Part shown: piece after piece, positions 26,662 to 48,975 of the stretch | Numbering within the stretch: the stretch's first letter is position 1 | Layout: every line of letters begins with the position of its first letter | NCBI GenBank assembly: GCA_965213705.1 | Contig: OZ243913.1 | Coordinates: 800,001-864,000 of the forward strand | Direction: 5' to 3' | DNA: 64,000 nt | DNA from: Trueperaceae bacterium | GTDB taxonomy: Bacteria > Deinococcota > Deinococci > Deinococcales > Trueperaceae | The notes under the pieces: generated by a model | What the model was told of the DNA's origin: nothing | Databases searched by the model: none | What the model saw: the letters and a program-made list of their open reading frames with translations, nothing else | Program-made: the position numbers and the translations under genes

Positions 26662-27690
26662 ATGACTGACGCGCCCGTCTACCAAGCCCTCGCCCTGCAA
26701 GTCCGTTGCCACGCGGTCAACGGCCTGACGCCCGAAGAGGCTCGAGCGCGCATGATGGCGAGCGTGAAGCGCGTCGGCACGCAGGTGCGGGGTTCGAAAA
26801 ATTTTATCGGGCAAGACCTGCGCTTGGTGGTGTTGCCCGAGTATTTTTTGAGCGGCTTTCCCATGCGCGAGGGCGTGGACGAGTGGAAAGCGGCGGCGTG
26901 TTTGGACATAGGCGGCCCCGAGTACGACGCCCTTTCGGAAATCGCCCAGGCCAACGACGTGTACCTGGCGGGCAACGTCTACGAACTCGACGCGTACTTT
27001 CCCGAGTTGTATTTTCAAACCTGCTTTGTTCTTTCGCCCAGCGGTGACACCGTGCTGCGCTACCACCGCCTTATCAGCATGTTCGCGCCCACGCCCCACG
27101 ACGTGTGGGACGAGTACCTGGACGTTTACGGCCTTGAAAAGGTGTTTCCCGTCGCCCACACCGAGTTGGGGCGGCTCGCGGCCATCGCCTCCGAAGAGAT
27201 TTTGTACCCCGAGGTGGCCCGCTGCCTGGCGATGCGCGGGGCGGAGGTGTTTTTGCACTCGAGCAGCGAAGCCTCGAGCCCCCGCCCCATGCCCAAAGAG
27301 GTCGCCAAGGTGGCGCGGGCGGTCGAAAACATGGCCTACGTCGTCTCGGCGAACTCGGCGGGCATCGACGGCACCCCCATCCCCGCCGACTCGACCAACG
27401 GCAACTCGCAAATCGTCGACCCGTACGGGCACGTCCTCGCCGCAGCCGCGCAGGGCGAGAGCATGGTGGCCTACGCCGAACTCGACTTGGGCGCGCTGCG
27501 CCGCTTCCGCCGCCGTCCGGCGATGGGCAACCTGCTCGCGCGGCAGCGCTTCGAACTGTTCGCGGCAAGTTACGCGAACCACAGCTTTTACCCGCCGAAC
27601 ACGCTTGCCGGCGGCCTTCAAGACCGCAAACAGCTCGTGCAGACACAGCTCGAGACGATTCGAAAACTGAGCGACGAAACGATCATTTAG
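26662..27690 (+). CDS. Carbon-nitrogen hydrolase (nitrilase) homolog with non-canonical triad
   Basis: VLPEYF, GNSQIVDPYG, RAVENMAYVVSAN; YHR in place of YRK and IASEE in place of ICxD. Confidence 0.85.
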   Translation: MTDAPVYQALALQVRCHAVNGLTPEEARARMMASVKRVGTQVRGSKNFIGQDLRLVVLPEYFLSGFPMREGVDEWKAAACLDIGGPEYDALSEIAQANDVYLAGNVYELDAYFPELYFQTCFVLSPSGDTVLRYHRLISMFAPTPHDVWDEYLDVYGLEKVFPVAHTELGRLAAIASEEILYPEVARCLAMRGAEVFLHSSSEASSPRPMPKEVAKVARAVENMAYVVSANSAGIDGTPIPADSTNGNSQIVDPYGHVLAAAAQGESMVAYAELDLGALRRFRRRPAMGNLLARQRFELFAASYANHSFYPPNTLAGGLQDRKQLVQTQLETIRKLSDETII

Positions 27691-27700
27691 GAGGTGAGAC

Positions 27701-29137
27701 GTGGCGCTTACTGCTGAAGCCATACCCGTCCGCAACCCGCTTACCGGCGAGACGGACACCCACATCACGCCGCCGAGCGTCGCCGAGGTTCAAGCGGAAT
27801 GTCGGCGGCTCAGGGCGGGGCAGGTCGCCTGGCAGGAGGGCGGGCTCGAAGCTAGGATTGACGTTCTGCAGAAGTGGAAAACCCAGCTAACCACCCACAA
27901 GGACGCCCTCGTCGCGGCCGTCACCCACGACACCGGGCGCAGCCGCGAGTCGGCGGTCGAGGTTTACGGACTTATAGGGACTCTGGAGCGCTGGTGTGCC
28001 CAAGCACCCGACCTGTTGAAAGATGCGGCACCCTACGCCACCTCCGCGCCCATGCTGAGCGTTCAACAACAACTTGTTCCTTATGGGCTCGTCGGCGTCA
28101 TCAGTCCCTGGAACTTTCCGCTGCTGCTGTCGCTCATCGACGCCGTACCGGCCCTGCTCGCGGGCAGCGCCGTCGTTGTCAAGCCGAGCGAAATTACGCC
28201 GCGCTTCGTCGAACCGCTGCTGGAAACCGTCCGGGCGACGCCCGCGCTGCGGGACGTGCTCACCTACCTGGTCGGCGCGGGCGCGACCGGGGCGGCGCTC
28301 GTCGACGAGGTGGACGTGGTCTGTTTTACCGGCGGCGTGGCGACGGGGCGTGTCGTTGCCGAGGCGGCGGCGCGCAACTTCATCCCGGCGTTTTTGGAAC
28401 TCGGCGGCAAAGACCCGGCCGTCGTCTTGGCGAGCGCCGACGTGGACTACGCGACGTCGGCGGTGCTGTGGGGCGCGACCTCGAACGCGGGCCAGTCGTG
28501 CCAGTCTATCGAGCGGGTGTACGTCGCGGCGGAAATTTACGAGGCCTTTGTCGAAAAGATTGCCCAAAAAGCGAACGCTTTGAAGTTCGCCTTCGAGGGC
28601 GGCCCGGTTGCGCCGGTGATTTCAGGCCAGCAAATCGCCGTCCTCGAGGCCCACCTGCAAGACGCTTTCGACCGGGGGGCCACGGCCGTGACGGGCGGCA
28701 AACTCGTTCGGCACGGGGGCGGTACCTGGTGCCCGCCGACGGTGTTGGTCGACGTCACCCACGACATGAAGGTGATGCGGGAGGAAACTTTCGGGGCGAT
28801 TATCCCCGTCATGAAGTTTTCGGATACCGACGAGGCGGTGAGCCTGGCGAACGACACGACCTTCGGCTTGAGCGCGGCGGTCATCGCGGGCAGCGAGGCG
28901 GAAGCGCTGGCCGTGGGGCGCAGGCTCTGTTCGGGCGCGGTCAGCATCAACGACGCGGCGCTCACCGCGGCGACGCAAGAGGCCGAAAAGCAGTCGTTCA
29001 AACTCTCCGGCCTGGGCGGCTCACGCATGGGTCCCGCCTCCATCCGGCGCTTTTTGCGGCAAAAGGCGCTCATCGTCAAGTCCGGGTACGCGCCGAGCCC
29101 GTGGTGGTTTGAGGAGTTGAAGGTGATTCATGAGTAA
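27701..29137 (+). CDS. Aldehyde dehydrogenase
   Basis: ISPWNFP, KPSE, FTGG, LELGGKDP, NAGQSC, EETFG. Confidence 0.93.
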   Translation: MALTAEAIPVRNPLTGETDTHITPPSVAEVQAECRRLRAGQVAWQEGGLEARIDVLQKWKTQLTTHKDALVAAVTHDTGRSRESAVEVYGLIGTLERWCAQAPDLLKDAAPYATSAPMLSVQQQLVPYGLVGVISPWNFPLLLSLIDAVPALLAGSAVVVKPSEITPRFVEPLLETVRATPALRDVLTYLVGAGATGAALVDEVDVVCFTGGVATGRVVAEAAARNFIPAFLELGGKDPAVVLASADVDYATSAVLWGATSNAGQSCQSIERVYVAAEIYEAFVEKIAQKANALKFAFEGGPVAPVISGQQIAVLEAHLQDAFDRGATAVTGGKLVRHGGGTWCPPTVLVDVTHDMKVMREETFGAIIPVMKFSDTDEAVSLANDTTFGLSAAVIAGSEAEALAVGRRLCSGAVSINDAALTAATQEAEKQSFKLSGLGGSRMGPASIRRFLRQKALIVKSGYAPSPWWFEELKVIHE

Positions 29138-29170: not shown

Positions 29171-29656
29171 ATGACGACCAAGCGAGCGTTCAGCAAGTCC
29201 CTGGTTCCCTGGCTGGCTCGGCACGAGGGCGACTGGTACGGCACCTACGTCCACGTCGACGCCGACGGACGAGAGGTCGACAGACACGTGTCCCACCTCA
29301 TTTCGGTGTTTCCCGAGGACGGTCCCGACTACCACCAGACCAACCGCTACGTTTGGGCGGACGGGCGGGTCGAGGAACACCTGTTTCCCGGCACCTTCGA
29401 CCCGGCGAGCGGGCGCGTCGTCTTCGACACCGAGCGCATCGACGGCTGGGCTCGAGGGTTGGACGACCGCCACGTGCAACTGCAGTTCACCTACAAGGGC
29501 GGCTCCGAGCACTACGTGTACGAGTTCATCCACCTCTCCGACAGCGAGCGCTACCGCACCCGCACCTGGCACTGGTACGACGGCGACGGGCGGCTTTACA
29601 AACGCACCCTCATCGCTGAAACCCGCGACGCCGGCCCCGAGCATGACGGCATCTAA
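29171..29656 (+). CDS. Calycin-like beta-barrel protein (DUF3598-like)
   Basis: EGDWYGTYVHVDADG (GxW motif), beta-rich; GGAGG RBS. Confidence 0.65.
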   Translation: MTTKRAFSKSLVPWLARHEGDWYGTYVHVDADGREVDRHVSHLISVFPEDGPDYHQTNRYVWADGRVEEHLFPGTFDPASGRVVFDTERIDGWARGLDDRHVQLQFTYKGGSEHYVYEFIHLSDSERYRTRTWHWYDGDGRLYKRTLIAETRDAGPEHDGI

Positions 29657-30119
29657 CGCAACAAAATCGCTGGTCGAAACCCTGCCGCTGCTGGCACGCA
29701 ACGGGGGCGACTGGTACGGCACCTACCTCCATTTGGACGAGGCCGGCCACGTGCTCGACCGCCACGCCTCGCACCTCAACCCGGTTACGACTGAAGGCTC
29801 CAACAGCTACGCGCAGACCAACCGCTACACCTGGGCCGACGGTCGCGAGGTGAGTTATACGTTTACCGGCACCCTCAAAGGCGACCGCGTCGTCTACGAC
29901 ACCGAACGCATCTACGGCGAAGCTTGGGAAGCCGACGCCGACACCCTCATTTTGAAGTTCCGCTACAAAGACGAGCCCCGCAAGTACATCTACGAGTACA
30001 TCCACCTCTCCGCCGACGACCGGCACCGCACCCGCGTGTGGCACTGGTTCGACGAGCGCGGCGAGGTCTACAAGCGCACGCTAATTAAGGAAACTAGAGC
30101 AGTACCGAGTGCCGAGTAG
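29643..30119 (+). CDS. Calycin-like beta-barrel protein, tandem paralog
   Basis: GGDWYGTYLHLDEAG; shares QTNRY.WADGR, DTERI.G.A and YE.IHLS...R.RTR.WHW with the previous gene. Confidence 0.65.
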   Translation: MTASNATKSLVETLPLLARNGGDWYGTYLHLDEAGHVLDRHASHLNPVTTEGSNSYAQTNRYTWADGREVSYTFTGTLKGDRVVYDTERIYGEAWEADADTLILKFRYKDEPRKYIYEYIHLSADDRHRTRVWHWFDERGEVYKRTLIKETRAVPSAE

Positions 30120-30195: not shown

Positions 30196-30810
30196 ATGGA
30201 AACTGTAACCGCCTACTACGACTACCTCTGTCCCTTCGCACAGCGCGGCATGAAGCTTGCCGAGCAGGTCGCCGAGCCGCTGCAACTCACCTTCGACTGG
30301 CGGCACTTCAGCCTGTACCAGGGAAACTACAAGGGTGAGGACGGCTGGAAGGTGTGGGAGGACGCGCTGCAGACCGGCGACAAGGACGGCGGCAAGGGAC
30401 TGTTGCCGTTTTTAGCGTCGCACGCCGCGCGGGACTTAGGCGACGCTGCGGCGTTCCGGCTCGAGCTGGCGAAAGCCCACCACGAAACGGGCCGACCCTA
30501 TACCCTGGAAACCGTCCGGTCGGTCGCCGAGGGGGTGGGGCTGGACGCCGACGCGCTCGAGGCCAGGCTCCGCGACCCCGCAACCCGCGCCGCGCTCGCC
30601 GCCGAACACGCCGATTCCGCCGCCAACCACGTCACGGGCACGCCGACTTTCCGTTTTGCAACAGGCGACCAGGCTTACTTCCGCGCGGCGGACCTGCCCG
30701 CCACCCAGGACGGCGCGGTCAAACTCTTCTCGACCTACCGCACCCTGCTGACCGAGTTCCCGTTCGTGCAAAACGTCAAGCGCTACTACGAAGTGCGCAG
30801 GCCGAGTTAG
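30196..30810 (+). CDS. DsbA/HCCA-isomerase-like thioredoxin-fold protein (single Cys, CPFA)
   Basis: YYDYLCPFA...VTGTPTF; GGAG RBS. Confidence 0.78.
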   Translation: METVTAYYDYLCPFAQRGMKLAEQVAEPLQLTFDWRHFSLYQGNYKGEDGWKVWEDALQTGDKDGGKGLLPFLASHAARDLGDAAAFRLELAKAHHETGRPYTLETVRSVAEGVGLDADALEARLRDPATRAALAAEHADSAANHVTGTPTFRFATGDQAYFRAADLPATQDGAVKLFSTYRTLLTEFPFVQNVKRYYEVRRPS

Positions 30811-30821: not shown

Positions 30822-31436
30822 GTGGAAGCGTACCGGTTCGAAGGGTTCGGCGACGCGTCGGGTATGGGGAAACGTCCGGCGGTCGTCGTGGTGGACTTTA
30901 TCAAGGGCTTTACCGACCCGGCGTGTCCGCTGGGGTCGAACCTGGACAAGGAAGTCGGGGCGACAAAGGCTTTGCTCGAGGCCGCCAGGGCGCAAGAGCT
31001 GCCCGTCTACTTCACCACGGTCGTTTACGGCGAAGCGGACAAGCGCGCGGGGTATTTTCTCCAGAAAGTTCCCGCCCTGGGCGTGCTTGCTCCGGACAGC
31101 CCGTGGGTCGAGGTGGACGAACGCTTGGCGCGCCGGGCGAGCGAGCCTCTATTTATCAAACGTTTTGCCAGCGCCTTTTTCGGGACCGACCTGAACGCCT
31201 ACCTCGCTTTCGAGCGGGTGGACACGGTCATCGTCACGGGCTGCACCACCTCGGGCTGCGTCCGCGCGACGGCGGTGGACGCGCTACAACACGGCTACCG
31301 CCTGGTCGTCCCGGAAGACTGCGTGGGTGACCGCTCGCAAGAAGCGCACGTGGCGAACCTGCGCGACATTCAGACCAAGTACGGAGACGTTTTGCCTTTG
31401 GACGAGGTGCTGCAAAGGTTGGAAAAAACAGCGTGA
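30822..31436 (+). CDS. Isochorismatase-family amidohydrolase (maleamate amidase NicF / N-carbamoylsarcosine amidase-like)
   Basis: Asp-Lys-Cys triad: VVVDF, IKRFASAFF, TGCTTSGCVRATAVDA. Confidence 0.85.
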   Translation: MEAYRFEGFGDASGMGKRPAVVVVDFIKGFTDPACPLGSNLDKEVGATKALLEAARAQELPVYFTTVVYGEADKRAGYFLQKVPALGVLAPDSPWVEVDERLARRASEPLFIKRFASAFFGTDLNAYLAFERVDTVIVTGCTTSGCVRATAVDALQHGYRLVVPEDCVGDRSQEAHVANLRDIQTKYGDVLPLDEVLQRLEKTA

Positions 31437-31514: not shown

Positions 31515-31964
31515 TCAAACCGGCGGCAAGTCCAGAAGCTGTAACCCCGTCCCCGCGTCCGTCGCCCGCGACAAACTTCCCTCGTAACTCAGCATCGTAA
31601 ACTCGACGGCGAACGCTTTCGCGCTCACGACGTGCCCGCCCCAAAGCTTGACGTCGTCACCCGTCCTCGAGCTTAAACTCAGGTGCAAGTGAACATGCGG
31701 GTTATCGTCCAGGGTGCTTATCAGCCCGTGTCCCCCGACGATTTCAAAAGCGCCCGTGAGGGTGAGGGGTTCTAAACGTTCCCCTTTTTTGAAGTCGTAG
31801 GCGCTCAAGACGACCTCGCTCAGGCCGCCGAGCATAAAAACGTTCGCCGCACGGACGCCGTGAATCCCGGCCACCTGCACGAAGCTTTCGTGCAGGTCGG
31901 CGTCGCCGGTCAGGGTGCCCGCATAAACTATTGTCTTTTCGGAGATTTTTTGGAGTCGGAGCAT
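31515..31964 (-). CDS. PPC/DUF296 domain protein
   Basis: FEIVGGHG...PHVHLH...GGHV...VEF pattern. Confidence 0.8.
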   Translation of the reverse strand: MLRLQKISEKTIVYAGTLTGDADLHESFVQVAGIHGVRAANVFMLGGLSEVVLSAYDFKKGERLEPLTLTGAFEIVGGHGLISTLDDNPHVHLHLSLSSRTGDDVKLWGGHVVSAKAFAVEFTMLSYEGSLSRATDAGTGLQLLDLPPV

Positions 31965-31991: not shown

Positions 31992-33188
31992 CTAGATGAC
32001 CCCTTTCGTTCGCAAGTCTGTGAGTTCGCCGTCGGAAAGGCCGAGCAACGACCCCAACACTTCATCGGTGTGCTGTCCCAAAAGCGGCGGCGGCGCGTAA
32101 CCGTCGTCGTTCGTGGCGGACAGCTTGATGGGGTTGCCGGGCATCTTGACGCTGCCCCCCTCGGGGTGTTCGACCTCGACGACCATGTTGCGCGCGACGA
32201 CTTGCGGGTCGCTCAAGGCCTGCTCGAGGGTGTTCACGGGCGCGCAGGGAATCCGCGCCTTGCGCAGTTTGCTCAGCCAGTGAGCTTGTGTAAGAGTGCG
32301 GAAAACCTCGCCCAACTTTTCGTTAATGAGGTCCTGGTTGTGCCAGCGTCCGGGCTGCTCCCGGTTTTCTTCGGTGTCTAAGTCGGGAAGCTCGAGCACG
32401 TCCATCAGGTTCGCCCAAAAGTTGTCGGTGATGACCGCGACGATGATGTAGCCGTCGCTGCACGCGAACGTGTTGTAGGGCACGTGGACGAAGTGGGCGT
32501 TGCCGAGCTTGTCGGGCACGTTGCCGGACAGGTGGTACATCGTCGCCATGTAGTTCAAGAGGCTGATTTGCGCGTCCAGCATAGAAATATCGACGTGTTG
32601 CCCCTGCCCCGTCGTTTCCCTGGCTAAAAGCGCCGCGAGGACGCCGACGACCCCCATCAGTCCGCCGCCCAGGTCGCCTATCGGGATGCCCGAGCGGGTC
32701 GGCGGGCCGCCCGGCTGCCCGGTGATGCTCATGCCGCCGCCCACCGCCTGCGTGACCATGTCGAAGGCGGGCTGACGCGTGTCGGGGCCGGTCTCGCCAA
32801 AACCCGTAATCGTGTAGGTGACGATGCGCGGGTTGACCTCGGACAGGTGGGCGTGGTCGATGTTGAGGCGCTTCGTGACGCCCGCGCTGAAGTTGTCCAG
32901 GACGACGTCCGCGTGTTTGACAAGGTCGTAAAACAGCGCCAGGCCGCGCTCGTCTTTGAGGTTGAGGGTCACGCTTTTTTTGTTGCGGTTCAGCGTCAAA
33001 AAGTACGCGCCCATGCCGTGCAGGCTGTTGTCGGGGTCGTCCGCTAACAGGCGGCGGGTGCCCTCGCCCGTGCCGGGCGGCTCAATCTTGAGGGTTTCCG
33101 TGCCTAAGTCGGCGAGCATCATCCCGGCGTAGGGGCCGGAGAGCATGTGGGTCAGGTCGAGCAGGACGGTCCCGGCGAGTGGTTTCAA
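31992..33188 (-). CDS. CaiB/BaiF class III CoA-transferase
   Basis: LDLTHMLSGP, NRNKKS, DVVLDNF, GFGETGP, AFD; probable TTG start after GGGAG. Confidence 0.9.
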   Translation of the reverse strand: MKPLAGTVLLDLTHMLSGPYAGMMLADLGTETLKIEPPGTGEGTRRLLADDPDNSLHGMGAYFLTLNRNKKSVTLNLKDERGLALFYDLVKHADVVLDNFSAGVTKRLNIDHAHLSEVNPRIVTYTITGFGETGPDTRQPAFDMVTQAVGGGMSITGQPGGPPTRSGIPIGDLGGGLMGVVGVLAALLARETTGQGQHVDISMLDAQISLLNYMATMYHLSGNVPDKLGNAHFVHVPYNTFACSDGYIIVAVITDNFWANLMDVLELPDLDTEENREQPGRWHNQDLINEKLGEVFRTLTQAHWLSKLRKARIPCAPVNTLEQALSDPQVVARNMVVEVEHPEGGSVKMPGNPIKLSATNDDGYAPPPLLGQHTDEVLGSLLGLSDGELTDLRTKGVI

Positions 33189-33221: not shown

Positions 33222-33237
33222 TATAATGTTATAACAT
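33222..33237 (+). promoter_or_regulatory. TATAAT -10 box overlapping palindrome ATGTTATAACAT (putative GntR/HutC-type operator)
   Basis: Perfect 12-bp palindrome between the divergent caiB and gntR genes. Confidence 0.7.
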
Positions 33238-33275: not shown

Positions 33276-33998
33276 ATGACCCAGATTGACCGCAGTTCTC
33301 CGTTGCCCCTCTACTCGCAGCTCAAGGCAATTTTGCTCGAGCGGCTCAGGCAGGAGTGGCAGCCGGGGCAGCTGATACCGGGCGAGAGTGCGCTCGAGAG
33401 CGCCTACGGCCTCAGCCGGATTACCGTGCGGCAGGCGCTCGCCGAACTGGTCAACGACGGCTACTTGTACCGCCAGCGCGGCCGCGGTACCTTTGTCAGG
33501 CATCAAAAATTCACCCACGACCCGGCGCGGCGCTTGGCGCTGACCGACACTATGCGGCAACAGGGCGTCACGCCGGGCTGGCGCGTGCTGGGCAGCGGTC
33601 CCTGCGAGGCGACGGACGGGTTGGCGCACATGCTCGGCATAGGGACGGGCTCGAGCATCTTTATCCTGAAACGCTTGCGCCTGGTCAACGAGGAAGTTAT
33701 CGGCTACCACGTCGCTTATGTGCCGGGGGCGCAAGCCGAGCACATCGACCCGGAGGCGTTAGACCGGGAAGGGTCGCTGCACTACCTGCGCCACGTGCCC
33801 GGCATGGCGGGCAGTAGAGCGCACCGGACCCTGGAGGCGCAGGGCGCGAGCGAAGTTGTCGCCAGACACTTAGGTATTCAAGCAGACGACCCCGTGTTGC
33901 ACATCGAGCGCGTCACCGTAGCGGCGGACGGCAGCCCTATCGAACTTTTGAGCGCCGCTTACCGGGGTGACCGCTTCAGGTACACCCTCTCTATTTAG
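33276..33998 (+). CDS. GntR (HutC/UTRA) regulator
   Basis: PLYSQL...SRITVRQAL...RGRGTFV HTH followed by a UTRA domain ending YRGDRF. Confidence 0.93.
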   Translation: MTQIDRSSPLPLYSQLKAILLERLRQEWQPGQLIPGESALESAYGLSRITVRQALAELVNDGYLYRQRGRGTFVRHQKFTHDPARRLALTDTMRQQGVTPGWRVLGSGPCEATDGLAHMLGIGTGSSIFILKRLRLVNEEVIGYHVAYVPGAQAEHIDPEALDREGSLHYLRHVPGMAGSRAHRTLEAQGASEVVARHLGIQADDPVLHIERVTVAADGSPIELLSAAYRGDRFRYTLSI

Positions 33999-34009: not shown

Positions 34010-34090
34010 AGTACCGAGTACCGAGTAAAAAGTACCGCGAAAAGGCGCGAAAGTGCCGCCCTCGTTGTTTGTTACTCGAGCCTCGTTACT
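34010..34090. repeat. Heptamer inverted-repeat hairpin element (degenerate)
   Basis: AGTACCGAGTACCGAGTAA ... TTACTCGAGCCTCGTTACT. Confidence 0.75.
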
Positions 34091-34098
34091 CACTCTCA

Positions 34099-34587
34099 AT
34101 GGTAGATGAAAAAATGACGACGCCCTACGGCATGGACTTGAAAGTCGACTACGGCGAAGCGCGCCACCGCCCCTACCAGTGTTTTATGGGCCGCTGGGAA
34201 GGTTTGTGCAAAACGTTCACGGCGCGCGGCGAGTTTTTGGAGTCCACCGCCGTCCACATGAACGTGTTTTGGAAGGACGCAAATACCTGGCATTTACACG
34301 AACACTTCGAAAACCTGTTTGAAGTGGGCGAGACGGTGTTTCACAGCGACATCCACGTCGAGGGCAAATATTGCCACTCCAAAAACGACATGGTGACGAT
34401 TACCGGCAGCGAACTCACCCCCTACAACTACGTGTTCACCATCGACTCTCAAGTGACCAAAACCCTCGTCTACAACAACCACTACTTTTTAGACCCCGAC
34501 ACGCGGCGCATCATCACCCACAAAACGCGCGGCGGCGAGACGCATATTTACCAGATTCAGGACTTCGCCCGCGTGGTGCGGCCCTAA
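34099..34587 (+). CDS. Calycin-like beta-barrel hypothetical protein
   Basis: FMGRWEGLCKTFTARG (GxW motif), beta-rich and His-rich; start may be 34114. Confidence 0.55.
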   Translation: MVDEKMTTPYGMDLKVDYGEARHRPYQCFMGRWEGLCKTFTARGEFLESTAVHMNVFWKDANTWHLHEHFENLFEVGETVFHSDIHVEGKYCHSKNDMVTITGSELTPYNYVFTIDSQVTKTLVYNNHYFLDPDTRRIITHKTRGGETHIYQIQDFARVVRP

Positions 34588-34620: not shown

Positions 34621-35439
34621 GTGATTGTTCAAACCGCGCCCGAGGGCGAAGCTCATTTTGTAGTTCTGCAAGCCGACCACGCTCGAGCTTCGGGGCAGTT
34701 GGCGCTGGCCTTCGGGAACGCGGATTTCGGCGAACTCTATCCGAAAGACCTCATGGAGTTCGTCGTCGCGCACCACGACGAGGGTTGGACGCCGGTTGAC
34801 GCGGAGGTCAACCGGGACGAACGTACCGGCCTGCCCTACCACCTGACGCAGACGCCGCTGCCGGACTTGGTCCGCACGGGCAACCTCACGCCCGACTTCA
34901 ACGAGGCGCGACATCCGTTTTGCGGCGTTATCTCGAGTATGCACTTTTACGGCCTTTACCACGGGCGCTACGGCTTGTCGGACAAACTCTTCATCGACAC
35001 CCTGACCGACGAGCACAAACCGCTGGTCGACGACCTGTTGAGCGGCGAACTGGCGCGGCAGCAACGCCTCAAAAAACAGCTTAGGGCCGACGGTCACGGG
35101 GACTGGGCGCAGGACGACTTTTTGTTTCACAATTACAAGTTGTTACAATTTTTCGACACGCTCTCGCTCTACTTTCACATGGTTCACGCAAAGGCTCGAG
35201 CCGAGGCGACGTTCCAAAACCTGCCGAGGGGTTTGGGCGACGACGTAACGGTGACGGTCAGGCCGGTGAGCAAAAACGCCTACGGGATAAGCCCCTGGCC
35301 GTTTGGGGAAGAGGCGCTCGAGTTCACCACCGCCGGCCGTTACCTCAAACCGCAACCCGCGTCGGTCGACCTCGCCGACGTGTTTCACGCAAAGCGGCTC
35401 GAGACCCAGACCGTCACGCTCCTACCGGGGCGCGGATGA
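34621..35439 (+). CDS. DUF3891 family (HD-like) protein
   Basis: QADHARASG.LA, HHDEGW, SMH, FDTLSL. Confidence 0.75.
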   Translation: MIVQTAPEGEAHFVVLQADHARASGQLALAFGNADFGELYPKDLMEFVVAHHDEGWTPVDAEVNRDERTGLPYHLTQTPLPDLVRTGNLTPDFNEARHPFCGVISSMHFYGLYHGRYGLSDKLFIDTLTDEHKPLVDDLLSGELARQQRLKKQLRADGHGDWAQDDFLFHNYKLLQFFDTLSLYFHMVHAKARAEATFQNLPRGLGDDVTVTVRPVSKNAYGISPWPFGEEALEFTTAGRYLKPQPASVDLADVFHAKRLETQTVTLLPGRG

Positions 35440-40781: not shown

Positions 40782-40789
40782 TGGCGAGG

Positions 40790-40971: not shown

Positions 40972-41997
40972 ATGCAAACGCACGCCGCCCGCCCCAACCA
41001 AACGCGCCGCACCTGGCTCATCGCGGGCGGCCTCGTCGTCGTTGTCGCCGTCCTGCTCATCCTGGGTTGGGACGGTGTGCAGGGGTGGTTTGCGCGCAAC
41101 GGGGTGGTGTTGCGGCAGGCGGCGGTGACGGGCGTGCTCATCGGCGGGGTTTACGGCCTGGTGGCGCTCGGGCTCACGCTGATTTTCGGCGTGCTGAACA
41201 TTATCAACTTTGCCCACGGGGCACTCATGACGGTGGGAATGTACCTGACGTTTTTGCTGTTCAGCACTTACGGCGTGGACCCTTACGTGTCGATTCTGAT
41301 AACCGCGCCCGCGCTCTTTCTGGTTGGTTTGGTAGTCGAACGCTTTATCATCTTCCCGGCTCGAGACGCGCCCGAACACAACCAACTCTTGCTCACCTTA
41401 GGGTTGTCGCTCTTCATCCAAAACCTGCTGCTCCTCACTTTTACCGCCACCCCGCGCTCGATTCGTCTGGGCTACGCGCGGGGCGAGGTGGGTTTGGGTC
41501 CCGTGACGCTCGACTTCCCCCTACGGGTGTGGGGCACCACCGTGACGCTGCCGAAACTCGCCGCGTTCGTGTTCGCGGTGGCGCTGTCGCTGCTTCTGTA
41601 CTGGCTGCTGCAACGTTCCGACTTAGGCAAGGCGATTCGCGCGGTGGCGCAGGAGCGCGACGGCGCGGCGCTCGTGGGCGTCAACGTCGAGCGGGTCAAC
41701 CGGCTCACCTTTGGATTAGGCACGGCCTGCGTGGGCGCGGCCGCCGCGCTCGTGTTGCCGTTCTTTTTCGTCGACCCGGTGGCGGGCGAGAGTTTCAACA
41801 TCATCGCCTTCGTCACGGTCGTGTTGGGCGGCATGGGCAGCGTGCCGGGGGCGCTGCTGGGCGGCATTCTCATCGGGCTCACCCAGGAACTCGGCGTGGT
41901 GTTCTTGCCAGGCGCGGCGAAGATGTTGGGCGTGTTCGTCGTGTTCGTCCTGGTACTGCTGTTCCGGCCGCAGGGGCTGTTCGGGCGGCTCGAGTGA
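40972..41997 (+). CDS. BCAA-type ABC permease (LivH-like)
   Basis: YGLVALGLTLIFG...INFAHG; VLGGMGS; RPQGLFG. Confidence 0.92.
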   Translation: MQTHAARPNQTRRTWLIAGGLVVVVAVLLILGWDGVQGWFARNGVVLRQAAVTGVLIGGVYGLVALGLTLIFGVLNIINFAHGALMTVGMYLTFLLFSTYGVDPYVSILITAPALFLVGLVVERFIIFPARDAPEHNQLLLTLGLSLFIQNLLLLTFTATPRSIRLGYARGEVGLGPVTLDFPLRVWGTTVTLPKLAAFVFAVALSLLLYWLLQRSDLGKAIRAVAQERDGAALVGVNVERVNRLTFGLGTACVGAAAALVLPFFFVDPVAGESFNIIAFVTVVLGGMGSVPGALLGGILIGLTQELGVVFLPGAAKMLGVFVVFVLVLLFRPQGLFGRLE

Positions 41998-43001
41998 GCG
42001 CGCGACTCACGACGAACCGCGACTACCTCATTCTGGGCGGGCTGACCCTGGGGCTGCTCGTGTTGCCTTTTTTTACAAACTCGTTTCAGCTCAGTCTCGC
42101 CGTCCTCGTGCTCCACTTCGCGCTGCTCGGGGCGGCCTGGAACGTCATGGGCGGCTACGCGGGGCAGTTCTCGTTCGGGCACGCGGCGTTTTACGGCATC
42201 GGCGCGTACACCTCGACCATCCTGTTGACCAAGCTCGGTGTCAGTCCTTGGCTGGGGATGCTGGCGGGGGCGGCCTTGGCGGCGCTCTTTGGCGCGGGGA
42301 TGGGCTACTTGACGTTTCGCTACGGCCTCAAAGGGCCTTATTTTGCGCTGGCGACGTTCGCGTTCGCCGAGATGCTGCGGCTCATCGCCAACGAGTGGGG
42401 CTTTATCGAGGGCTCGGTCGGCGTCCACCTGCCGCTCGTCGGCGGCGACTCGTGGGCGCGGCTCCAGTTCGAGGCGACGCCGCGCAACTACTACTTCGCG
42501 GTGCTCGTTTTATTTGTGTTCGTTTACCTCGTCCAGATTGCCGTGGTCCACAGCAAGTTCGGCTACTACCTGCAAGCCGTCCGCGAGGACGAGGTCGCCG
42601 CCGCCGCGCTGGGTGTCAACCTGATGCGTTACAAGGTCGGGGCGGTGGCGCTGAGCGGGGCGTTGACGGCGCTGGGCGGCTCGTTTTTCGCGCACTACTT
42701 TTTGTTCATCAGCCCAGAAATCGTCTTCGGCGCGGCCATTTCCATCGACATTTTGCTGGCCCCCATCGTCGGCGGGGCGGGGACGGTGTGGGGTCCCTTT
42801 ATCGGCGCGCTGTTCCTGACGCCGCTGGGCGAGGTCTCGAGACGCCTCATCCGCACGCCGCCGGAGTTTTTAAGCTTTATCCAGGGGCGCTCAGGCTTGG
42901 ACGTGATGCTCTTCGGGGCCATCCTTATCGTCGTCATCATCTACCTGCCGAACGGCGTCGCCGGGTTGGGACGGCGCTGGTGGCGCAGGCGGCGACCGTG
43001 A
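41994..43001 (+). CDS. BCAA-type ABC permease (LivM-like)
   Basis: GYAGQFSFGHAAFYGIGAY; AVREDE; GGAGTVWGP. Confidence 0.92.
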   Translation: MSARLTTNRDYLILGGLTLGLLVLPFFTNSFQLSLAVLVLHFALLGAAWNVMGGYAGQFSFGHAAFYGIGAYTSTILLTKLGVSPWLGMLAGAALAALFGAGMGYLTFRYGLKGPYFALATFAFAEMLRLIANEWGFIEGSVGVHLPLVGGDSWARLQFEATPRNYYFAVLVLFVFVYLVQIAVVHSKFGYYLQAVREDEVAAAALGVNLMRYKVGAVALSGALTALGGSFFAHYFLFISPEIVFGAAISIDILLAPIVGGAGTVWGPFIGALFLTPLGEVSRRLIRTPPEFLSFIQGRSGLDVMLFGAILIVVIIYLPNGVAGLGRRWWRRRRP

Positions 43002-43735
43002 CGGCGTTTTTGCAAGTGTCTAGCGTCAGCAAACGCTTCGGCGGCTTGACCGCGGTGAGGGACGTGAGTTTTGAACTGCGGCAGGGTGAAATCCTGGGGC
43101 TCATCGGGCCGAACGGGGCGGGCAAGTCGACCTTGTTCAGCATTGTCGGCGGAAGTTTGCAGCCGAGCGAGGGAACGGTCAGCTTCGAGGGCGCAACCCT
43201 CACGGGGCGGCCCCCCCACGACGTCTGTCGGCGGGGCGTGGCCCGCACCTTTCAAATCGTCAAGCCGTTCGCGGGGTTGCGGGTGGTGGACAACGTGATG
43301 GTGGGCGCGTTCAACCGGACGACGCGCGTCGCGGACAGCGAACGCAAAGCCCGCCGGATTTTAGAGTTCGTCGGGCTGGCCGACCGCGCCGAGCGGCCCG
43401 CTTTCTCGCTCACCACGGCGGGGCGCAAACGGCTCGAGCTGGCTCGCGCCCTCGCCACCGAGCCCAAACTGCTGCTGCTCGACGAGGTGATGGCGGGCCT
43501 CACCCCAACCGAGAGCCGCGGCATCGTCGAGTTGCTGCACCGGGTGCGCGACACGGGCGTGACGCTGCTGGTGACCGAACACGTCATGAAGGCCATCATG
43601 GCGCTGTCCGACCGGGTGGCGGTGTTGCATCACGGCGAACTCATCGCCCTGGGCACGCCCAAAGAGGTCACCGAAACCCCGGAAGTCGTCGAGGCTTATC
43701 TGGGCAAAAGGCGTGCGGACGGGGTGGGTGCGTAG
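42998..43735 (+). CDS. ABC ATPase (LivG-like)
   Basis: GPNGAGKS, ARTFQ, LLLDE. Confidence 0.92.
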   Translation: MTAFLQVSSVSKRFGGLTAVRDVSFELRQGEILGLIGPNGAGKSTLFSIVGGSLQPSEGTVSFEGATLTGRPPHDVCRRGVARTFQIVKPFAGLRVVDNVMVGAFNRTTRVADSERKARRILEFVGLADRAERPAFSLTTAGRKRLELARALATEPKLLLLDEVMAGLTPTESRGIVELLHRVRDTGVTLLVTEHVMKAIMALSDRVAVLHHGELIALGTPKEVTETPEVVEAYLGKRRADGVGA

Positions 43736-44440
43736 GTGTTGCGGCTCGAGGGACTTTATGGCGGCTACGCCGACGTGAACGTGTTGGAAGACGTGTCGCT
43801 CACGGTCGAAAGGGGTGAAATCGTGGCGCTGCTGGGCGCGAACGGCGCGGGCAAGACGACCACGCTGCGCACCGTTTCGGGGCTGCACCGGGCGCGACGG
43901 GGCACGGTGGTGTTCGAGGAAGAGGCCGTCCAGCACTGGCCCTCGCACCGCATCGTCGCCGCAGGTTTGGTCCAAGTCGCCGAGGGACGCAAGCTGTTCG
44001 CGCACATGACGGTAACCGAAAACCTGGAAATGGGCGCGTTCGGACGCCGCGTCAGGGTGGGTCGCAAGGAGACCATGGCGGAGGTGTTCGACCTGTTCCC
44101 GCGTTTAAGAGAGCGCCGCAAACAGTTCGCCGGGACGCTCTCGGGGGGCGAGCAGCAGATGTTGGCCGTGGGCCGCGCCCTCATGACGCGGCCCAAACTG
44201 CTCATGCTGGACGAGCCCTCGCTGGGCCTCGCGCCGAAAATCGTCGAGGACATTTTCGAGGTCGTGCGGCGCGTCAACGGCGCGGGCGTCAGCGTGTTAA
44301 TCGTCGAGCAGAACGCAGTGCAAACCCTGGAATTGGCCCACCGGGCTTACGTGCTCGAGAACGGCCACATCACCCTGAGCGGGTCCGGCGACGCCCTGCT
44401 GCAAGACCCGCGCATCCGCACGGCGTACTTGGGACTTTGA
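43736..44440 (+). CDS. ABC ATPase (LivF-like)
   Basis: GANGAGKT, LSGGEQQ, LDEPSLGLAP. Confidence 0.93.
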   Translation: MLRLEGLYGGYADVNVLEDVSLTVERGEIVALLGANGAGKTTTLRTVSGLHRARRGTVVFEEEAVQHWPSHRIVAAGLVQVAEGRKLFAHMTVTENLEMGAFGRRVRVGRKETMAEVFDLFPRLRERRKQFAGTLSGGEQQMLAVGRALMTRPKLLMLDEPSLGLAPKIVEDIFEVVRRVNGAGVSVLIVEQNAVQTLELAHRAYVLENGHITLSGSGDALLQDPRIRTAYLGL

Positions 44441-44572: not shown

Positions 44573-45823
44573 ATGACCCTAGCCGAAAAAATCATCTCGA
44601 CACACGCGGGCCGCGAGCTTTACGCGGGCGACATCGCCGTGGTGGCTGTAGACGGCGCGATGGCGACCGACACGACCGCGCCCTTAGCCATCCAAGCTTT
44701 TCGGGAGATGGGCGGAACAAAACTCTTCGACCCAGAAAAGTTCTTTTTGGTTCTCGACCACGCCGTCCCCGCCCCCAACGAGCGCATCGCCAACCTGCAC
44801 ACCATGATGCGGGCGTTCGCCCGCGACACGGGCTGCAAACTCTACGACGTGGGCGAGGGCATTTGCCACCAACTGATGGTGGACCATGACCACGTGCGGC
44901 CCGGCGACGTTTTCGTGGGCGCGGACTCGCATACGCCGACCTACGGGGCTTTGGGCGCGTTCGCCGTGGGCATGGGCTCGACCGACACGGCGGGCGTGAT
45001 GCTGACCGGGAAAACCTGGCTTAAAGTCCCGCAGACGATTCGCCTGGAACTCAACGGCACCGTCAAACCGGGCGTCAGCGCCAAGGACGTCATTCTGTAC
45101 CTCGTCGGGCGCTTGGGTATTGCAGGCGCGACCTACGACGCGGTCGAGTTTACGGGCGAGGTCGTCCACCCTATGACCTTAGCGAGCCGCATGACCCTTG
45201 CCAACATGGTCGCCGAAATGGGCGCGAAGGCGGGGTTGGTGGACACGTCCGAGTTGGAGACGCCCTACGACTTCGAACGCCTCGCCCCCGACGCCGACGC
45301 GACTTACAAAGCGCGTCACGTTCTGGACTTGAGCGACCTGCGCCCCCAAGTGGCGCTGCCCCACTCGCCCGAAAACGTGCGCGACATCGACGAGGTTATA
45401 GGCCGCAAAATCGACGCCGCCTTTATCGGCTCGTGTACCAACGCGCGGCTCGAGGACTTTCACGCCGCCGCGCAGGTGCTCAAAGGCCGCAAGCTCGCCC
45501 CCGGCGTGCGCCTCATCATCGCCCCGGCCTCGCGCAACGTGTTCGACGCGGCGCTGCGAGACGGCACGGTCGAGACCCTGTCCGCGGCGGGGGCGACCTT
45601 TATCACCTCGGGCTGCGGGCCGTGCGTGGGCACGCACCAGGGCGTGCCGGGCGACGGGGAGGCGGTCATCTCGAGCACCAACCGCAACTTCCGCGGGCGG
45701 CAGGGCAACCCGAACGCCGACGTTTACTTAGCCTCGCCCGCCGTGGTCGCGGCGGCGGCGGTGGCGGGCGAGATTGTCGACCCCGCCGACCTCTTGGCCC
45801 GTGACAGCGGGGTGCTGGCGTGA
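44573..45823 (+). CDS. LeuC/HacA/DmdA-type [4Fe-4S] hydratase large subunit
   Basis: LDH, GICH, GADSHT, IGSCTN, CGPC, STNRNF; short 416 aa type. Confidence 0.9.
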   Translation: MTLAEKIISTHAGRELYAGDIAVVAVDGAMATDTTAPLAIQAFREMGGTKLFDPEKFFLVLDHAVPAPNERIANLHTMMRAFARDTGCKLYDVGEGICHQLMVDHDHVRPGDVFVGADSHTPTYGALGAFAVGMGSTDTAGVMLTGKTWLKVPQTIRLELNGTVKPGVSAKDVILYLVGRLGIAGATYDAVEFTGEVVHPMTLASRMTLANMVAEMGAKAGLVDTSELETPYDFERLAPDADATYKARHVLDLSDLRPQVALPHSPENVRDIDEVIGRKIDAAFIGSCTNARLEDFHAAAQVLKGRKLAPGVRLIIAPASRNVFDAALRDGTVETLSAAGATFITSGCGPCVGTHQGVPGDGEAVISSTNRNFRGRQGNPNADVYLASPAVVAAAAVAGEIVDPADLLARDSGVLA

Positions 45824-46326
45824 AGCACCTGTTCGAGGGTACCGCGCACGTCTACGGCGACAACATAGACACCGACCGCATCATCCCCGGCAAGTACACC
45901 AAAACCCTCGACATGAGCCAGCTCGCCGCACACGTGTTGGAAGACCTGGACCCCCATTTTAGAACCAAGGTGAAAGCTGGCGACATGCTGGTCGCGGGCG
46001 ACAACTTCGGCTGCGGCTCGAGCCGCGAACAAGCGCCTATCGCCCTGCAGGCGGCGGGCGTGAGCGTCGTCGTCGCGCGCACTTTTGCGCGCATCTTTTA
46101 CCGGAACGCCATCAACATCGGGCTGCCGCTGGTCGAGGTGCCCGAGCACGACATAGAGGACGGCTCCGAGGTGCGGGTGGATTTGCTGGCGGGCGAGGTG
46201 CGCGACCTGGCGACCGGCCGCACCTACCGCGCGACCAGGATGCCCGAAGGAATGCTCGAGATTCTGAGCGCGGGCGGGCTCGTCTCGTATCTCAAAGAAC
46301 ACGGCGACTACGGAGGTGTCGCGTGA
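45820..46326 (+). CDS. LeuD/HacB/DmdB-type small subunit
   Basis: NIDTDRIIPGKY, NFGCGSSRE, FARIFYRNAINIG. Confidence 0.9.
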   Translation: MKHLFEGTAHVYGDNIDTDRIIPGKYTKTLDMSQLAAHVLEDLDPHFRTKVKAGDMLVAGDNFGCGSSREQAPIALQAAGVSVVVARTFARIFYRNAINIGLPLVEVPEHDIEDGSEVRVDLLAGEVRDLATGRTYRATRMPEGMLEILSAGGLVSYLKEHGDYGGVA

Positions 46327-47516
46327 GCTTGCCCCTGGACGGCGTGCGGGTGCTCGAATTCTCCCACGCCGTGCTCGGCCCCGCCGCGGGCATGATTTTG
46401 GCCGACCTGGGCGCGGACGTTGTCAAAATTGAGCCCACCCCCGACGGCGACCCGACGCGCAGGCTCAAGGGGTTCGGCCAAGGGTATTTCCCGTACTTTA
46501 ACCGCAACAAAAAAAGCATCGTCGTGAACCTCAAAACCGACGAGGGTCGTGAGGTTGTTCGTAAACTGCTCGAGGACAGTGACGTTTTGCTCGAGAACTA
46601 CGGCCCCGGCACGATTGAGCGCCTCGGTCTCGGTTACGAAGCGCTCAAGGACGAATTTCCCAGGCTTGTCTTCTGTTCGCTCAAAGGGTTTTTACCCGGC
46701 CCCTACGAAAACCGCACCGCGCTCGACGAGGTGGTGCAGATGATGTCGGGATTGGCCTACATGACCGGCCCGCCGGGACAGCCCATGCGCGCGGGCGCCT
46801 CGGTCATCGACGTGATGACCGGGATGTACGGCGCGATGGCGGTGATTTTGGCGCTCAAAGAGCGCGACGCCTCGGGCGCGGGGCAGCTCGTCAAGACGGC
46901 GCTTTTTGAAACCGCCGCCTTTTTGATGGGCCACCACATGTCCACGTTTGTCATGTCCGGCGAGCCGCTGCCGCCCATGTCGGCGCGGGTGAGCGCCTGG
47001 GCTATCTATCACCAGTTTGAAACGCAGGACGACCAACTCATCTTTATCGGCGTGACCAGCGACAAGCAGTGGCCGCGCTTTTGCGAGGCGTTCGGGCGTG
47101 AGGACCTGCTGGCGGACGACCGCCTGACGACCAACAACGACCGCGTGGCGGCGCAGGACTGGTTGCTGCCCGAGTTGCGCGCGATGGTTTCAGGCTTGAC
47201 GCTTGCCGAGGCGGTGGCGCGTTGCGAGGCGGCGCAACTTCCCTTTTCGCCCGTCGCCCGCCCGGAAGACCTGTTCGACGACCCTCAACTCAACGAGGGG
47301 GGAAGTTTGTTGGCGACCACGTTTCCCAACGGCTTCAAAACCAAGATGCCTAAACTGCCCCTCGCGCTGGGTGGGCGCGACTTGGGTCTGAGGCTCGAGC
47401 CGCCGCAGGTGGGCGAGCACACCACAGCCGTTTTGCGCTCCATCGGCTATTCGGCGGAAGACATCGACAGGCTTGGGGCTCGAGGGGTTGTCACGACAGG
47501 AGGTAAGGATGGCTGA
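46323..47516 (+). CDS. CaiB/BaiF class III CoA-transferase
   Basis: LADLGADVVKIE, NRNKKS, ENYGPG, ALD. Confidence 0.9.
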   Translation: MSLPLDGVRVLEFSHAVLGPAAGMILADLGADVVKIEPTPDGDPTRRLKGFGQGYFPYFNRNKKSIVVNLKTDEGREVVRKLLEDSDVLLENYGPGTIERLGLGYEALKDEFPRLVFCSLKGFLPGPYENRTALDEVVQMMSGLAYMTGPPGQPMRAGASVIDVMTGMYGAMAVILALKERDASGAGQLVKTALFETAAFLMGHHMSTFVMSGEPLPPMSARVSAWAIYHQFETQDDQLIFIGVTSDKQWPRFCEAFGREDLLADDRLTTNNDRVAAQDWLLPELRAMVSGLTLAEAVARCEAAQLPFSPVARPEDLFDDPQLNEGGSLLATTFPNGFKTKMPKLPLALGGRDLGLRLEPPQVGEHTTAVLRSIGYSAEDIDRLGARGVVTTGGKDG

Positions 47517-48975
47517 CTTGGACTTGCTCGTCAAAAACGTCCGCGTGGTGCGCCCGCACGGCAAGGGCGCGCAGAAGCTGGACCTGGGCGTCAAAGACGG
47601 CCGTTTCGTGCAGATAGGCGAAACGCTCACTGCGGGTGCAGCGGAGACCGTCGACGCGAACGGCTTGCTCGGTTTTCCCGGTGTGACCGACGCGCACACG
47701 CACATCGGTATTTACCAAGACGTCGGCAAAGACGCCGCCACCGAGTCGGCGGCGGCGGTCTCGGGCGGCGTGACGACGCTGCTGACCTACGTCCGCACCG
47801 GCAGTTTGTACCTAAACCGCCCCGGCCCCGTGCGCGAGTTTTTCCCCGAACTGCTCGCGGCCTCCGAAGGCAACTACCACTGCGACTACGGCTACCACAT
47901 TTCGCCTATCCAGGGCTCCCAAGTTGCCGAGATGGCTTACATGGCGACCGAGGCGGGCGCGCCCAACTTCGGCGAGATTTTCATGTTTTACGGCTCGCAC
48001 GGCCTTCACGGCGGCAGCGACGTGCAGCGGCAATGGCTGATGTTGGACGAGGGCGAGAGTTACGACCTGGCACACTTCGACCAGGTTTGCCGAGAAGCGG
48101 CGCGCTTGCAACGGGCGCACCCCGAACTCGAGCCCTACATCGCCGTAAGTTGGCACTGCGAACTGCCCGACCTGCTGCGCGAGTACGAAAAACGCGTTCA
48201 GGCAAGGGACGACCTCACCGGCCTCGCCGCCTACAGCGCCGCGCGCCCGCCCCACTGCGAAGCCCTGGGCGTCGCCACCGCCGGAGCGCTCGCGCATGAG
48301 GCCGGTTTGACGCGCATCAACATCCTCCACATCACCTCACGCGAGGCGATGGACGCGGCCCTGCGGCTGCGCGAAACGTATCCCGAGCTGGACGTGGGCT
48401 TGGAAGTCACCGCCGGGCACCTCTTGCTGGACACGACCTGCCACATGGGCGTGTTCGCCAAGGTCAACCCGCCCCTGCGCCCGCCCGAGCACCGCGAGTA
48501 CCTGTGGGAGCGCGTCAAGGACGGCACCTTGCAGTGGGCCATGACCGACCACGCCAACTGTCCCGAAAACCTGAAAGTCGCCGCCGACGACCCCGACAAC
48601 ATCTGGAAGGCCAAGGCGGGTTTCGGCGGCACCGACTACTTGTTGCCGGGGCTCTACAGCGAGGGGGCGAAGCGCGGCGTGAGTCCCAACCGCGTCGCCG
48701 AACTGGTCTGCTACAACCCCGCGCGGCGCTTCGGGCTGAACAACAAGGGCGACATCGACGTCGGGCTGGACGCCGACCTCGTGCTTTTAGACCCGGACGA
48801 GACCTGGACGATTCGCGGGGCGGACTCGCTCTCGGCGCAGGGTTACACGCCGTTCGAGGGGTTGGAGGTGACGGGCAGGGTCAAGAAAACGTTTTTGCGC
48901 GGTCAGCTTGTGTTTGACAACGGCAAGGTGCAAGGGACACCGAGCGGGCGGTATCAGAAGCGCCCGACGGGTTGA
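47509..48975 (+). CDS. Cyclic amidohydrolase (dihydroorotase/allantoinase/hydantoinase superfamily)
   Basis: DAHTH, GGVTT, WHCE, LHITS, KVNPPLR, TDHA, DADLV. Confidence 0.88.
   Translation: MADLDLLVKNVRVVRPHGKGAQKLDLGVKDGRFVQIGETLTAGAAETVDANGLLGFPGVTDAHTHIGIYQDVGKDAATESAAAVSGGVTTLLTYVRTGSLYLNRPGPVREFFPELLAASEGNYHCDYGYHISPIQGSQVAEMAYMATEAGAPNFGEIFMFYGSHGLHGGSDVQRQWLMLDEGESYDLAHFDQVCREAARLQRAHPELEPYIAVSWHCELPDLLREYEKRVQARDDLTGLAAYSAARPPHCEALGVATAGALAHEAGLTRINILHITSREAMDAALRLRETYPELDVGLEVTAGHLLLDTTCHMGVFAKVNPPLRPPEHREYLWERVKDGTLQWAMTDHANCPENLKVAADDPDNIWKAKAGFGGTDYLLPGLYSEGAKRGVSPNRVAELVCYNPARRFGLNNKGDIDVGLDADLVLLDPDETWTIRGADSLSAQGYTPFEGLEVTGRVKKTFLRGQLVFDNGKVQGTPSGRYQKRPTG

Follow-up and report, generated by a model that had tools for sequence, protein, structure and literature searches.

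Known routes of heme and chlorophyll breakdown end, to our knowledge, at bilins or phyllobilins, short of central metabolites. The closest described systems are the maleamate route of nicotinate and nicotine degradation (NicD, NicF/Ami, NicE), which proceeds by isomerization to fumarate; the dimethylmaleate branch of Eubacterium barkeri (DmdAB, Dml) together with the HbzIJ-type hydratases, which act on alkylmaleates; the Chloroflexus system, in which a CaiB transferase and a lyase of the HMG-CoA-lyase family (HMGL) activate and cleave (R)-citramalate; and the plant PAO/phyllobilin pathway, in which PAO is followed by red-chlorophyll-catabolite reductase (RCCR). Here, we describe an island of genes from a Trueperaceae bacterium that resembles each of these in part. 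It lies in a window of 64,000 nucleotides (contig OZ243913.1, positions 800,001 to 864,000 of the forward strand; G000:C1:800001-864000, where G000 is the genome holding the window), and its genes are named below by their first window coordinate. With moderate confidence, we propose from sequence comparison that the island exemplifies a conserved gene set, linked to a GntR regulator, for catabolizing the pyrrole fragments to which bilins or chlorophyll catabolites give rise. Its core cassette would take in 2,3-dialkylmaleimides, for example hematinic acid, and a 2-oxo acid and an acyl-CoA would be the end products. An earlier note had suggested a pathway for substituted maleimides, possibly derived from tetrapyrroles, and its gene inventory holds: all open reading frames (ORFs) that it named are open at the positions given and belong to the families given (Pfam/NCBIfam).

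Like the nicotinate route, the island encodes a NicF-group amidase with an Asp-Lys-Cys triad, and in its relatives maleate-isomerase-like and alpha/beta hydrolase genes stand beside the amidase. However, those relatives have no 2,5-dihydroxypyridine dioxygenase among their recurrent neighbors; moreover, the island's entry enzyme is a metal-dependent cyclic amidohydrolase, and its exit would be hydration and CoA-dependent cleavage. With DmdAB and HbzIJ it shares a hydratase of the LeuD/DmdB family, and in genome G045 a methylisocitrate-lyase-like gene, reminiscent of the dimethylmaleate branch, immediately precedes leuCD; in the island, by contrast, the hydratase is paired with a predicted imide hydrolase, a CaiB protein and an HMGL lyase. 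The Chloroflexus combination of CaiB transferase and HMGL-family lyase recurs in the island, but the predicted substrate is a 3-substituted malate and the transferase, CaiB2, forms a clade of its own. Relatives of the island pair a Rieske oxygenase with RCCR-family proteins as plants do; whereas plants stop at phyllobilins, these relatives couple the pair to putative ring-cleaving lower enzymes, and neither protein is encoded in the G000 island. Allantoinase, hydantoinase and dihydroorotase have the metal ligands of their TIM barrel in common with the amidohydrolase, which nevertheless falls below all of these family cut-offs. A literature search (most subscription papers and all supplements lay outside it) returned no account of the gene set or of a bacterial catabolic route for maleimides or bilins. 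Taken alone, the lower cassette would vary the known chemistry of maleamate and dimethylmaleate in a new way; the claim to novelty rests on the whole gene set and its substrate, which we still infer.

The conservation of the set was followed by mapping genome stretches around the amidohydrolase gene (amh) and 80 metagenome loci around the nitrilase-fold gene, with neighboring genes grouped by script-based clustering of ORFs; an initial genome scan with strict patterns had given 5 loci only. Whether the genes travel together elsewhere was the check set by the earlier note, and they do: the set co-occurs in Deinococcota, Chloroflexota, one Spirochaetota genome, Rhodococcus and metagenome loci. 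The amidohydrolase is present in 23 of 128 sampled Trueperaceae genomes. Loci from 16 of 20 further amh genomes were compared, and 12 of these hold the cassette hmgl-leuC-leuD-caiB2-amh complete and in order. Most of the 12 compact cassettes adjoin gntR and a LIV importer, and none has a calycin, nitrilase, isochorismatase or RCCR match. The core cassette is also found in G043 (where amh has moved), G230, G238, G289, G436, L057 and L084. Among cultured bacteria, Roseiflexus castenholzii encodes an amidohydrolase homolog at 66%. Three modules are thereby separable: the core cassette; a nitrilase module (nit-aldh-single barrel), to which DUF1838, SnoaL and VOC-type genes are often added; and an accessory module (isochorismatase-caiB1-PCC), which in Chloroflexota adjoins the maleate-isomerase-like gene. 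Around the nitrilase-fold gene in the 80 metagenome loci, aldh occurs in 41 (at least 40% identity), a barrel in 24, amh in 11, and leuC and DUF1838 in 8 each. In two Chloroflexota genomes, G238 and G436, nearly the whole gene set of the window forms a single cluster. Isochorismatase is absent from all 16 other Trueperaceae amh loci, and the idea that it forms a conserved pair with the amidohydrolase has to be given up. Both CaiB proteins placed in one pathway are indeed present, but they belong to separate modules and to separate clades of a quick tree in which long branches were flagged.

The connection with tetrapyrroles comes from the relatives. RCCR-like genes and a Rieske oxygenase are found within 8 of 13 Chloroflexota amh loci. 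The block that holds them (one or two RCCR-like genes, the Rieske gene, an extra double calycin and usually an alpha/beta hydrolase) is enclosed by amh and caiB2 and, in most cases, also by hmgl, gntR and double calycins. The first RCCR type passes PF06405 (E 2e-21), the second aligns to the first at 97.9% (hhalign), and a joint profile retrieves Arabidopsis RCCR (E 1e-17) and then bilin reductases. PMC10151467 describes RCCR as an outgroup of the bilin reductases that acts after oxygen-dependent ring opening; PMC2716323 reports two adjacent RCCR genes in Nostoc and terms the occurrence of RCCR in bacteria anomalous. Genome-level co-occurrence was tested in Chloroflexota and Trueperaceae, with no cyanobacterial or proteobacterial carrier genomes. 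In one order (146 genomes), amh is present in 7 genomes, all of which also have the double calycin, itself present in 8; of the 6 genomes with RCCR-like genes, 5 carry amh. In a phylum set of 301 genomes the counts are 7 for amh, 4 for RCCR and 3 for both. The alpha/beta hydrolase beside the Rieske gene at L004:2471-3463 has a weak match to PF12740 (E 0.003), a family once named Chlorophyllase2.

A 12-bp palindrome further ties the modules together as a predicted GntR operator. It stands at 33226-33237 and fits a HutC-type GntR site; elsewhere in the 4.25 Mb of the genome it is repeated exactly just once, at 51331-51342. Five other genomes have 13 exact palindromes, 12 of which belong to the cluster or, as in G289, open an RCCR operon (nitrilase-RCCR-monooxygenase-ALDH, the last being an aldehyde dehydrogenase) located 2.8 Mb from the cluster; a reversed-sequence control gave approx. 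1 match per genome. The thirteenth (G041 C2:493995) was taken as a chance match, the surrounding DNA being unrelated; that region (L155, G041:C2:488000-500000) has low-complexity, eukaryote-like ORFs in a bacterial assembly, possibly a contamination. In G436, the importer, the nitrilase module and the core cassette are preceded by sites of this kind, two of them exact and two differing at one position. A looser pattern placed the palindrome in 12 of 26 upstream regions overall, and most of the compact cassettes of Trueperaceae gave no match ahead of gntR. A sigma-70 promoter scan gave 0 sites, and terminators were not in excess.

The features of the island are as follows (window coordinates, strand):
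23353..25147, minus: OppC/OppB-type ABC permeases (Pfam), in the same place beside the cluster in relatives L016 and L108
25234..26163, minus: OppA-type binding protein, N-terminally truncated by ~226 aa (tblastn and blastn against L108, L016 and L109)
26662..27690, plus: nitrilase-fold protein (CN_hydrolase) with the non-canonical site Glu60-Arg136-Ser177
27701..29137, plus: aldehyde dehydrogenase (Aldedh), the usual partner of the nitrilase-fold gene
29171..29656, plus: single calycin barrel, DUF3598_N (Pfam)
29643..30119, plus: single calycin barrel, DUF3598_N (Pfam), 54% identical to its neighbor 29171
30196..30810, plus: DSBA-like thioredoxin-fold protein (Pfam), found in Trueperaceae copies only (locus maps)
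30822..31436, plus: isochorismatase-family amidase of the NicF/Ami/CSHase group, Asp25-Lys113-Cys146 intact
31515..31964, minus: PCC (PPC) domain protein (Pfam) that travels with CaiB1 and GntR (locus maps)
31992..33188, minus: CaiB1, family III CoA-transferase (CoA_transf_3) of the accessory module, TTG start at 33188
33226..33237, no strand: 12-bp palindrome in the caiB1-gntR intergenic region, a predicted GntR operator
33276..33998, plus: GntR/HutC-type (UTRA) regulator (Pfam/NCBIfam)
34069..34587, plus: single calycin-like barrel without a Pfam match, DUF3598/CpeS-like by Atlas; start perhaps ATG 34099 or nearby
34621..35439, plus: DUF3891 protein (Pfam), fixed in position between calycin genes (locus maps)
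35464..36387, plus: calycin double barrel of the DUF3598/BFA1 type (structure model)
36384..37229, plus: second calycin double barrel (hhalign 97.6% to the 35464 family)
37226..38149, plus: HMG-CoA-lyase-family C-C lyase (HMGL-like), core cassette
38153..39547, plus: flavocytochrome-c-type flavoprotein (FAD_binding_2)
39603..44440, plus: LIV-type ABC importer, 5 genes (Pfam/NCBIfam)
44573..45823, plus: large subunit of a HacA/DmdA-family hydratase, three Fe-S Cys motifs intact
45820..46326, plus: LeuD/DmdB small subunit with a conserved YTKT recognition loop
46323..47516, plus: CaiB2, family III CoA-transferase (CoA_transf_3) of the core cassette, separate clade
47509..48975, plus: cyclic amidohydrolase (Amidohydro_1) of an uncharacterized subfamily
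50540..51040, minus: 3' remnant of an alpha/beta hydrolase
51131..51250, minus: 5' remnant of a second LIV-type binding protein, 77% to the L108 copy
51331..51342, no strand: second copy of the palindrome
The DSBA-like (30196), PCC/PPC (31515) and DUF3891 (34621) genes lie within the span of the earlier note, which had not listed them.

None of the key enzymes exceeds a specific NCBIfam equivalog cut-off able to explain the island. The amidohydrolase 47509 lies below the NCBIfam cut-offs for allantoinase, dihydropyrimidinase and dihydroorotase (best score, 209 bits against 358 for the allantoinase AllB); its metal ligands His63, His65, His216, His274 and Asp347 are kept, and Glu takes the place of the carbamylated Lys, as it does in 103 of 120 close homologs, whereas 17 have Lys. 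The HMGL lyase 37226 scores 302.9 bits on NF004283 (cut-off 246) and keeps the RDG and HxH motifs and the active-site Cys loop. In several RCCR-type clusters (L102:14808-16202, L101, L120, L123) the lyase has an N-terminal flavin-reductase domain, which perhaps feeds the oxygenases. Both CaiB proteins are far under every named NCBIfam transferase cut-off. The flavoprotein 38153 is under the cut-off for flavocytochrome c; aligned to the fumarate reductases 1QO8 and 1D4C, it keeps both His of the active site, with Tyr at both Arg positions. As both Arg are replaced, a soluble fumarate reductase was ruled out. Its orthologs in the RCCR cluster of G346 (64%) and in Rhodococcus (39%) both stand beside amh, and it may interconvert succinimide-type and maleimide-type rings.

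The hydratase pair exceeds its family cut-offs (44573, TIGR01343, 527.9 against 385.7; 45820, TIGR02087, 206.3 against 109) and has the Fe-S Cys and GSSRE motif of HacAB/DmdAB/LeuCD enzymes. According to PMC7308503, the recognition loop determines substrate preference. This loop is YLRT in homoaconitase and YLVY in isopropylmalate isomerase; among 32 alignment rows of the LeuD type (duplicates included), 29 show YTKT or something close to it, and the remaining 3 belong to a second leuCD pair. The basic residue of YTKT would suit a side-chain carboxylate, and hematinic acid after ring opening would be a methyl-cis-homoaconitate. Since G000 has a LeuCD elsewhere (C1:2.41 Mb) and LysA over its cut-off, and no homocitrate synthase over cut-off, the hydratase of the cluster is spare. 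Where LeuCD or HMGL is absent or altered in relatives, the stand-ins are PrpD (as in the cluster of Rhodococcus gordoniae pDND3A), a CitE-type lyase, a methylisocitrate-lyase-like gene before leuCD, or a maleate-isomerase-like gene; by family, the first three would all suit methyl-substituted cis-butenedioates.

Five calycin-like proteins had been counted, and the count stands, with 34069 as a lead. The five barrels are DUF3598/BFA1-type calycins, 35464 by its model and the others by HMM, Atlas or hhalign. Proteins 29171 and 29643 exceed the DUF3598_N cut-off (28.0 and 28.7 bits against 22); a phmmer search of 29171 against the PDB found no match. For 34069, the Atlas neighbors are DUF3598_N and CpeS clusters (0.94, 0.93, 0.90), with recognition at 2241, below the 2300 mark, and hhalign to 35464 gives 22% only. 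Protein 35464 was modelled as two barrels (pLDDT 83); by Foldseek and VIA, the Nostoc DUF3598 protein 2O62 (Foldseek E 5e-11; VIA Z 20.1, root-mean-square deviation 4.1, 249 aligned) and BFA1 (Z 19.0) rank first, ahead of nitrobindins (Z 13.6), CpeS (11.7) and CpcT (9.1). None of the five has a CpeS/CpeT Pfam match, and CpeS is a lower neighbor in Atlas and fold. The island proteins share the calycin barrel with DUF3598/BFA1 double barrels, CpcS/CpeS and CpcT bilin lyases and nitrobindins, but at 8-14% identity and, unlike them, as five copies in one putatively catabolic operon. Several calycin relatives bind heme or bilins.

The nitrilase homolog keeps the fold but not the catalytic residues expected of it. 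The AlphaFold model of 26662 (pLDDT 87) is an alpha-beta-beta-alpha fold close to amidases (Foldseek E 1e-20), with Glu-Arg-Ser where solved amidases carry Glu-Lys-Cys. A canonical nitrilase or amidase was therefore rejected, since the Cys nucleophile and the Lys of the triad are replaced. Among the 120 homologs listed of 5438 found, Glu and Ser are present in 120 and Arg in 119, a conservation that argues for changed function rather than decay. RCCR-type genomes have, in place of this protein, a nitrilase of two tandem domains, the first of which retains a normal Cys (L099:16476-18176). Recurrent neighbors of the nitrilase-fold gene include three unannotated double-VOC-like families that are related to one another (L016:6191-7198, L065:11039-11941, L108:7030-7992; hhalign 60-96%). 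The isochorismatase 30822 keeps Asp-Lys-Cys, and its best PDB matches are 26ST, 4L07 and 3OT4; the last two, titled just 'isochorismatase' in the database, are presumably maleamate amidases. Its nearest solved relatives are the 26ST group (E 3e-61), a recent set of 5 entries named N-carbamoylsarcosine amidohydrolase. A separate operon, GntR-CaiB-HMGL-hydantoinase A/B-isochorismatase, which may open lactam rings, occurs in G436 (adjoining the main cluster), G360 and G230 (L117, L150, L151).

In the proposed mechanism, open bilins or their fragments would be imported by the ABC importers and bound by the calycin barrels, while the aldehyde dehydrogenase, the Glu-Arg-Ser protein and the flavoprotein would trim formyl, amide and C=C groups. 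Where relatives are of the RCCR type, the Rieske oxygenase and two RCCR-like reductases would act beforehand. The amidohydrolase would then open the imide ring, and ammonia would be released by the isochorismatase or spontaneously. Dialkylmaleamic acids readily lose ammonia, which makes a cassette with one hydrolase plausible. LeuCD would hydrate the dialkylmaleate (from hematinic acid, the methyl-cis-homoaconitate), CaiB2 would form the CoA ester, and the HMGL lyase would cleave it to pyruvate and glutaryl-CoA, or, if water were added at the other carbon, to 2-oxoglutarate and propionyl-CoA. As G000 has no RCCR-like gene, it would act downstream of ring opening by other organisms. A bolder version, which is possible but has less in its favor, is a widespread modular pathway that completes heme, phycobilin and chlorophyll breakdown: RCCR-like reductases, a Rieske oxygenase and catalytic calycins would cut linear tetrapyrroles to single rings, which would then be opened by a new imidase and a nitrilase-fold enzyme that works through serine. 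Pyruvate together with glutaryl- or butyryl-CoA would carry the carbon into metabolism, and many bacteria would keep the last cassette only and cross-feed on maleimides.

Several observations weigh against a tetrapyrrole substrate. The RCCR-like and Rieske genes, which support it, lie inside related clusters under the same operator, but neither PF06405 nor the RCCR-like profile finds a match in G000 (G044 served as a positive control), and the 128 Trueperaceae genomes have no RCCR-like match either; with amh in 23 of these, the cassette often occurs without any tetrapyrrole marker. The island has no Rieske oxygenase, and the only similar gene of G000 (C1:3.055 Mb, 35%) was set aside as it adjoins a purine-type ABC importer. 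In relatives, the Rieske protein matches VanA_C with no PaO-specific match. An RCCR gene is immediately upstream of the nitrilase-fold gene in 6 of the 80 metagenome loci, which represent one lineage (1 of 29 dereplicated clusters). The nominal P values for co-occurrence (approx. 1e-3 and 2e-4 without the centre genome) are overstated because the compared genomes are kin. In fold, the modelled calycin comes closer to DUF3598/BFA1 and nitrobindin than it does to CpeS/CpcT. Finally, the LeuCD hydratase is present in the core cassette, as had been supposed, but four RCCR-type genomes (G346, G359, G360, G441) keep amh-caiB2, three of them also hmgl, with LeuC at only 43-45% and elsewhere; as the cluster type is missing, hydration must differ there. 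NicF-like genes of these four are on other contigs, beside a hydantoinase A/B operon in the two cases checked.

The main competing explanation, to which we give roughly one chance in five, is that the core cassette generally degrades alkylmaleates or cyclic imides and serves an N-heterocycle other than a tetrapyrrole (alkylpyridine, pyrrolidone or succinimide-type), with RCCR-like proteins and calycins serving another upstream substrate or having changed function. In 12 of the 16 Trueperaceae loci, the cassette is self-standing and has an importer of its own, and RCCR is present in 0 of the 128 genomes of this family; the NicF-like amidase, maleate-isomerase-like gene and alpha/beta hydrolase recall the nicotinate maleamate route; and hydantoinase A/B and cyclase genes are close to some copies. 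Nevertheless, RCCR-like, calycin and amidohydrolase genes share nearly the same few genomes, the same operons and an operator, all solved relatives of the RCCR-like profile act on linear tetrapyrroles, and no NicX-type or pyridine hydroxylase family was seen among the recurrent neighbors scanned; the maleate-isomerase-like gene neighbors the isochorismatase with no pyridine oxygenase among these neighbors.

It is improbable that the set mainly detoxifies tetrapyrrole fragments or recovers nitrogen, with some members as non-catalytic binders. Maleimides are thiol-reactive and open chlorins phototoxic, thioredoxin-fold, peroxiredoxin and VOC-type genes recur in the clusters, no Cys nucleophile is present in 120 of 120 nitrilase-fold homologs, and the gene is carried by cyanobacteria, which make their own pigments; however, the flanking transporters are importers rather than exporters, and a CoA-transferase with a C-C lyase indicates cleavage of a carbon skeleton. 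A chance mosaic, or a housekeeping leucine/lysine role for LeuCD, is very improbable: two deletions do point to decay in G000, and LeuCD does exceed HacA/LeuD-type cut-offs, but gene order and operator are conserved across phyla, which largely refutes a mosaic, and the housekeeping role was rejected on the YTKT loop, the separate LeuCD, LysA and the lack of a homocitrate synthase over cut-off. Catabolism of pyrrole fragments thus remains the preferred reading. It yields a named gene set and predicted operator for bilin-fragment catabolism and a candidate role for bacterial RCCR homologs and for DUF3598, DUF1838 and DUF3891, and it highlights a large nitrilase-fold family with a Glu-Arg-Ser site.

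The island continues as remnants beyond both sides of the span first described. On the left, a deletion has removed the 5' half of oppA together with DUF1838, SnoaL and VOC-type genes that relatives keep; on the right, remnants of the second LIV binding protein and the hydrolase are fused behind the second palindrome. Despite both deletions, the core genes are intact. The guanine-cytosine content of the island is 0.64, against 0.61 for the genome. Inside the left scar, between truncated oppA and the nitrilase-fold gene, lies an ORF of 77-85 aa (26387-26644, plus) with no Pfam match, which we take to resemble small antitoxin-like proteins. Downstream of the island, 53265-54968 (minus) encodes a phytoene-desaturase-like flavoprotein (Amino_oxidase), and no link to the island was seen. 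Outside the island, 14598-22866 encodes a separate sugar ABC system and its LacI regulator; a putative glycosidase and a Gfo/Idh/MocA-like oxidoreductase, both read from the sequence only, complete that cluster.

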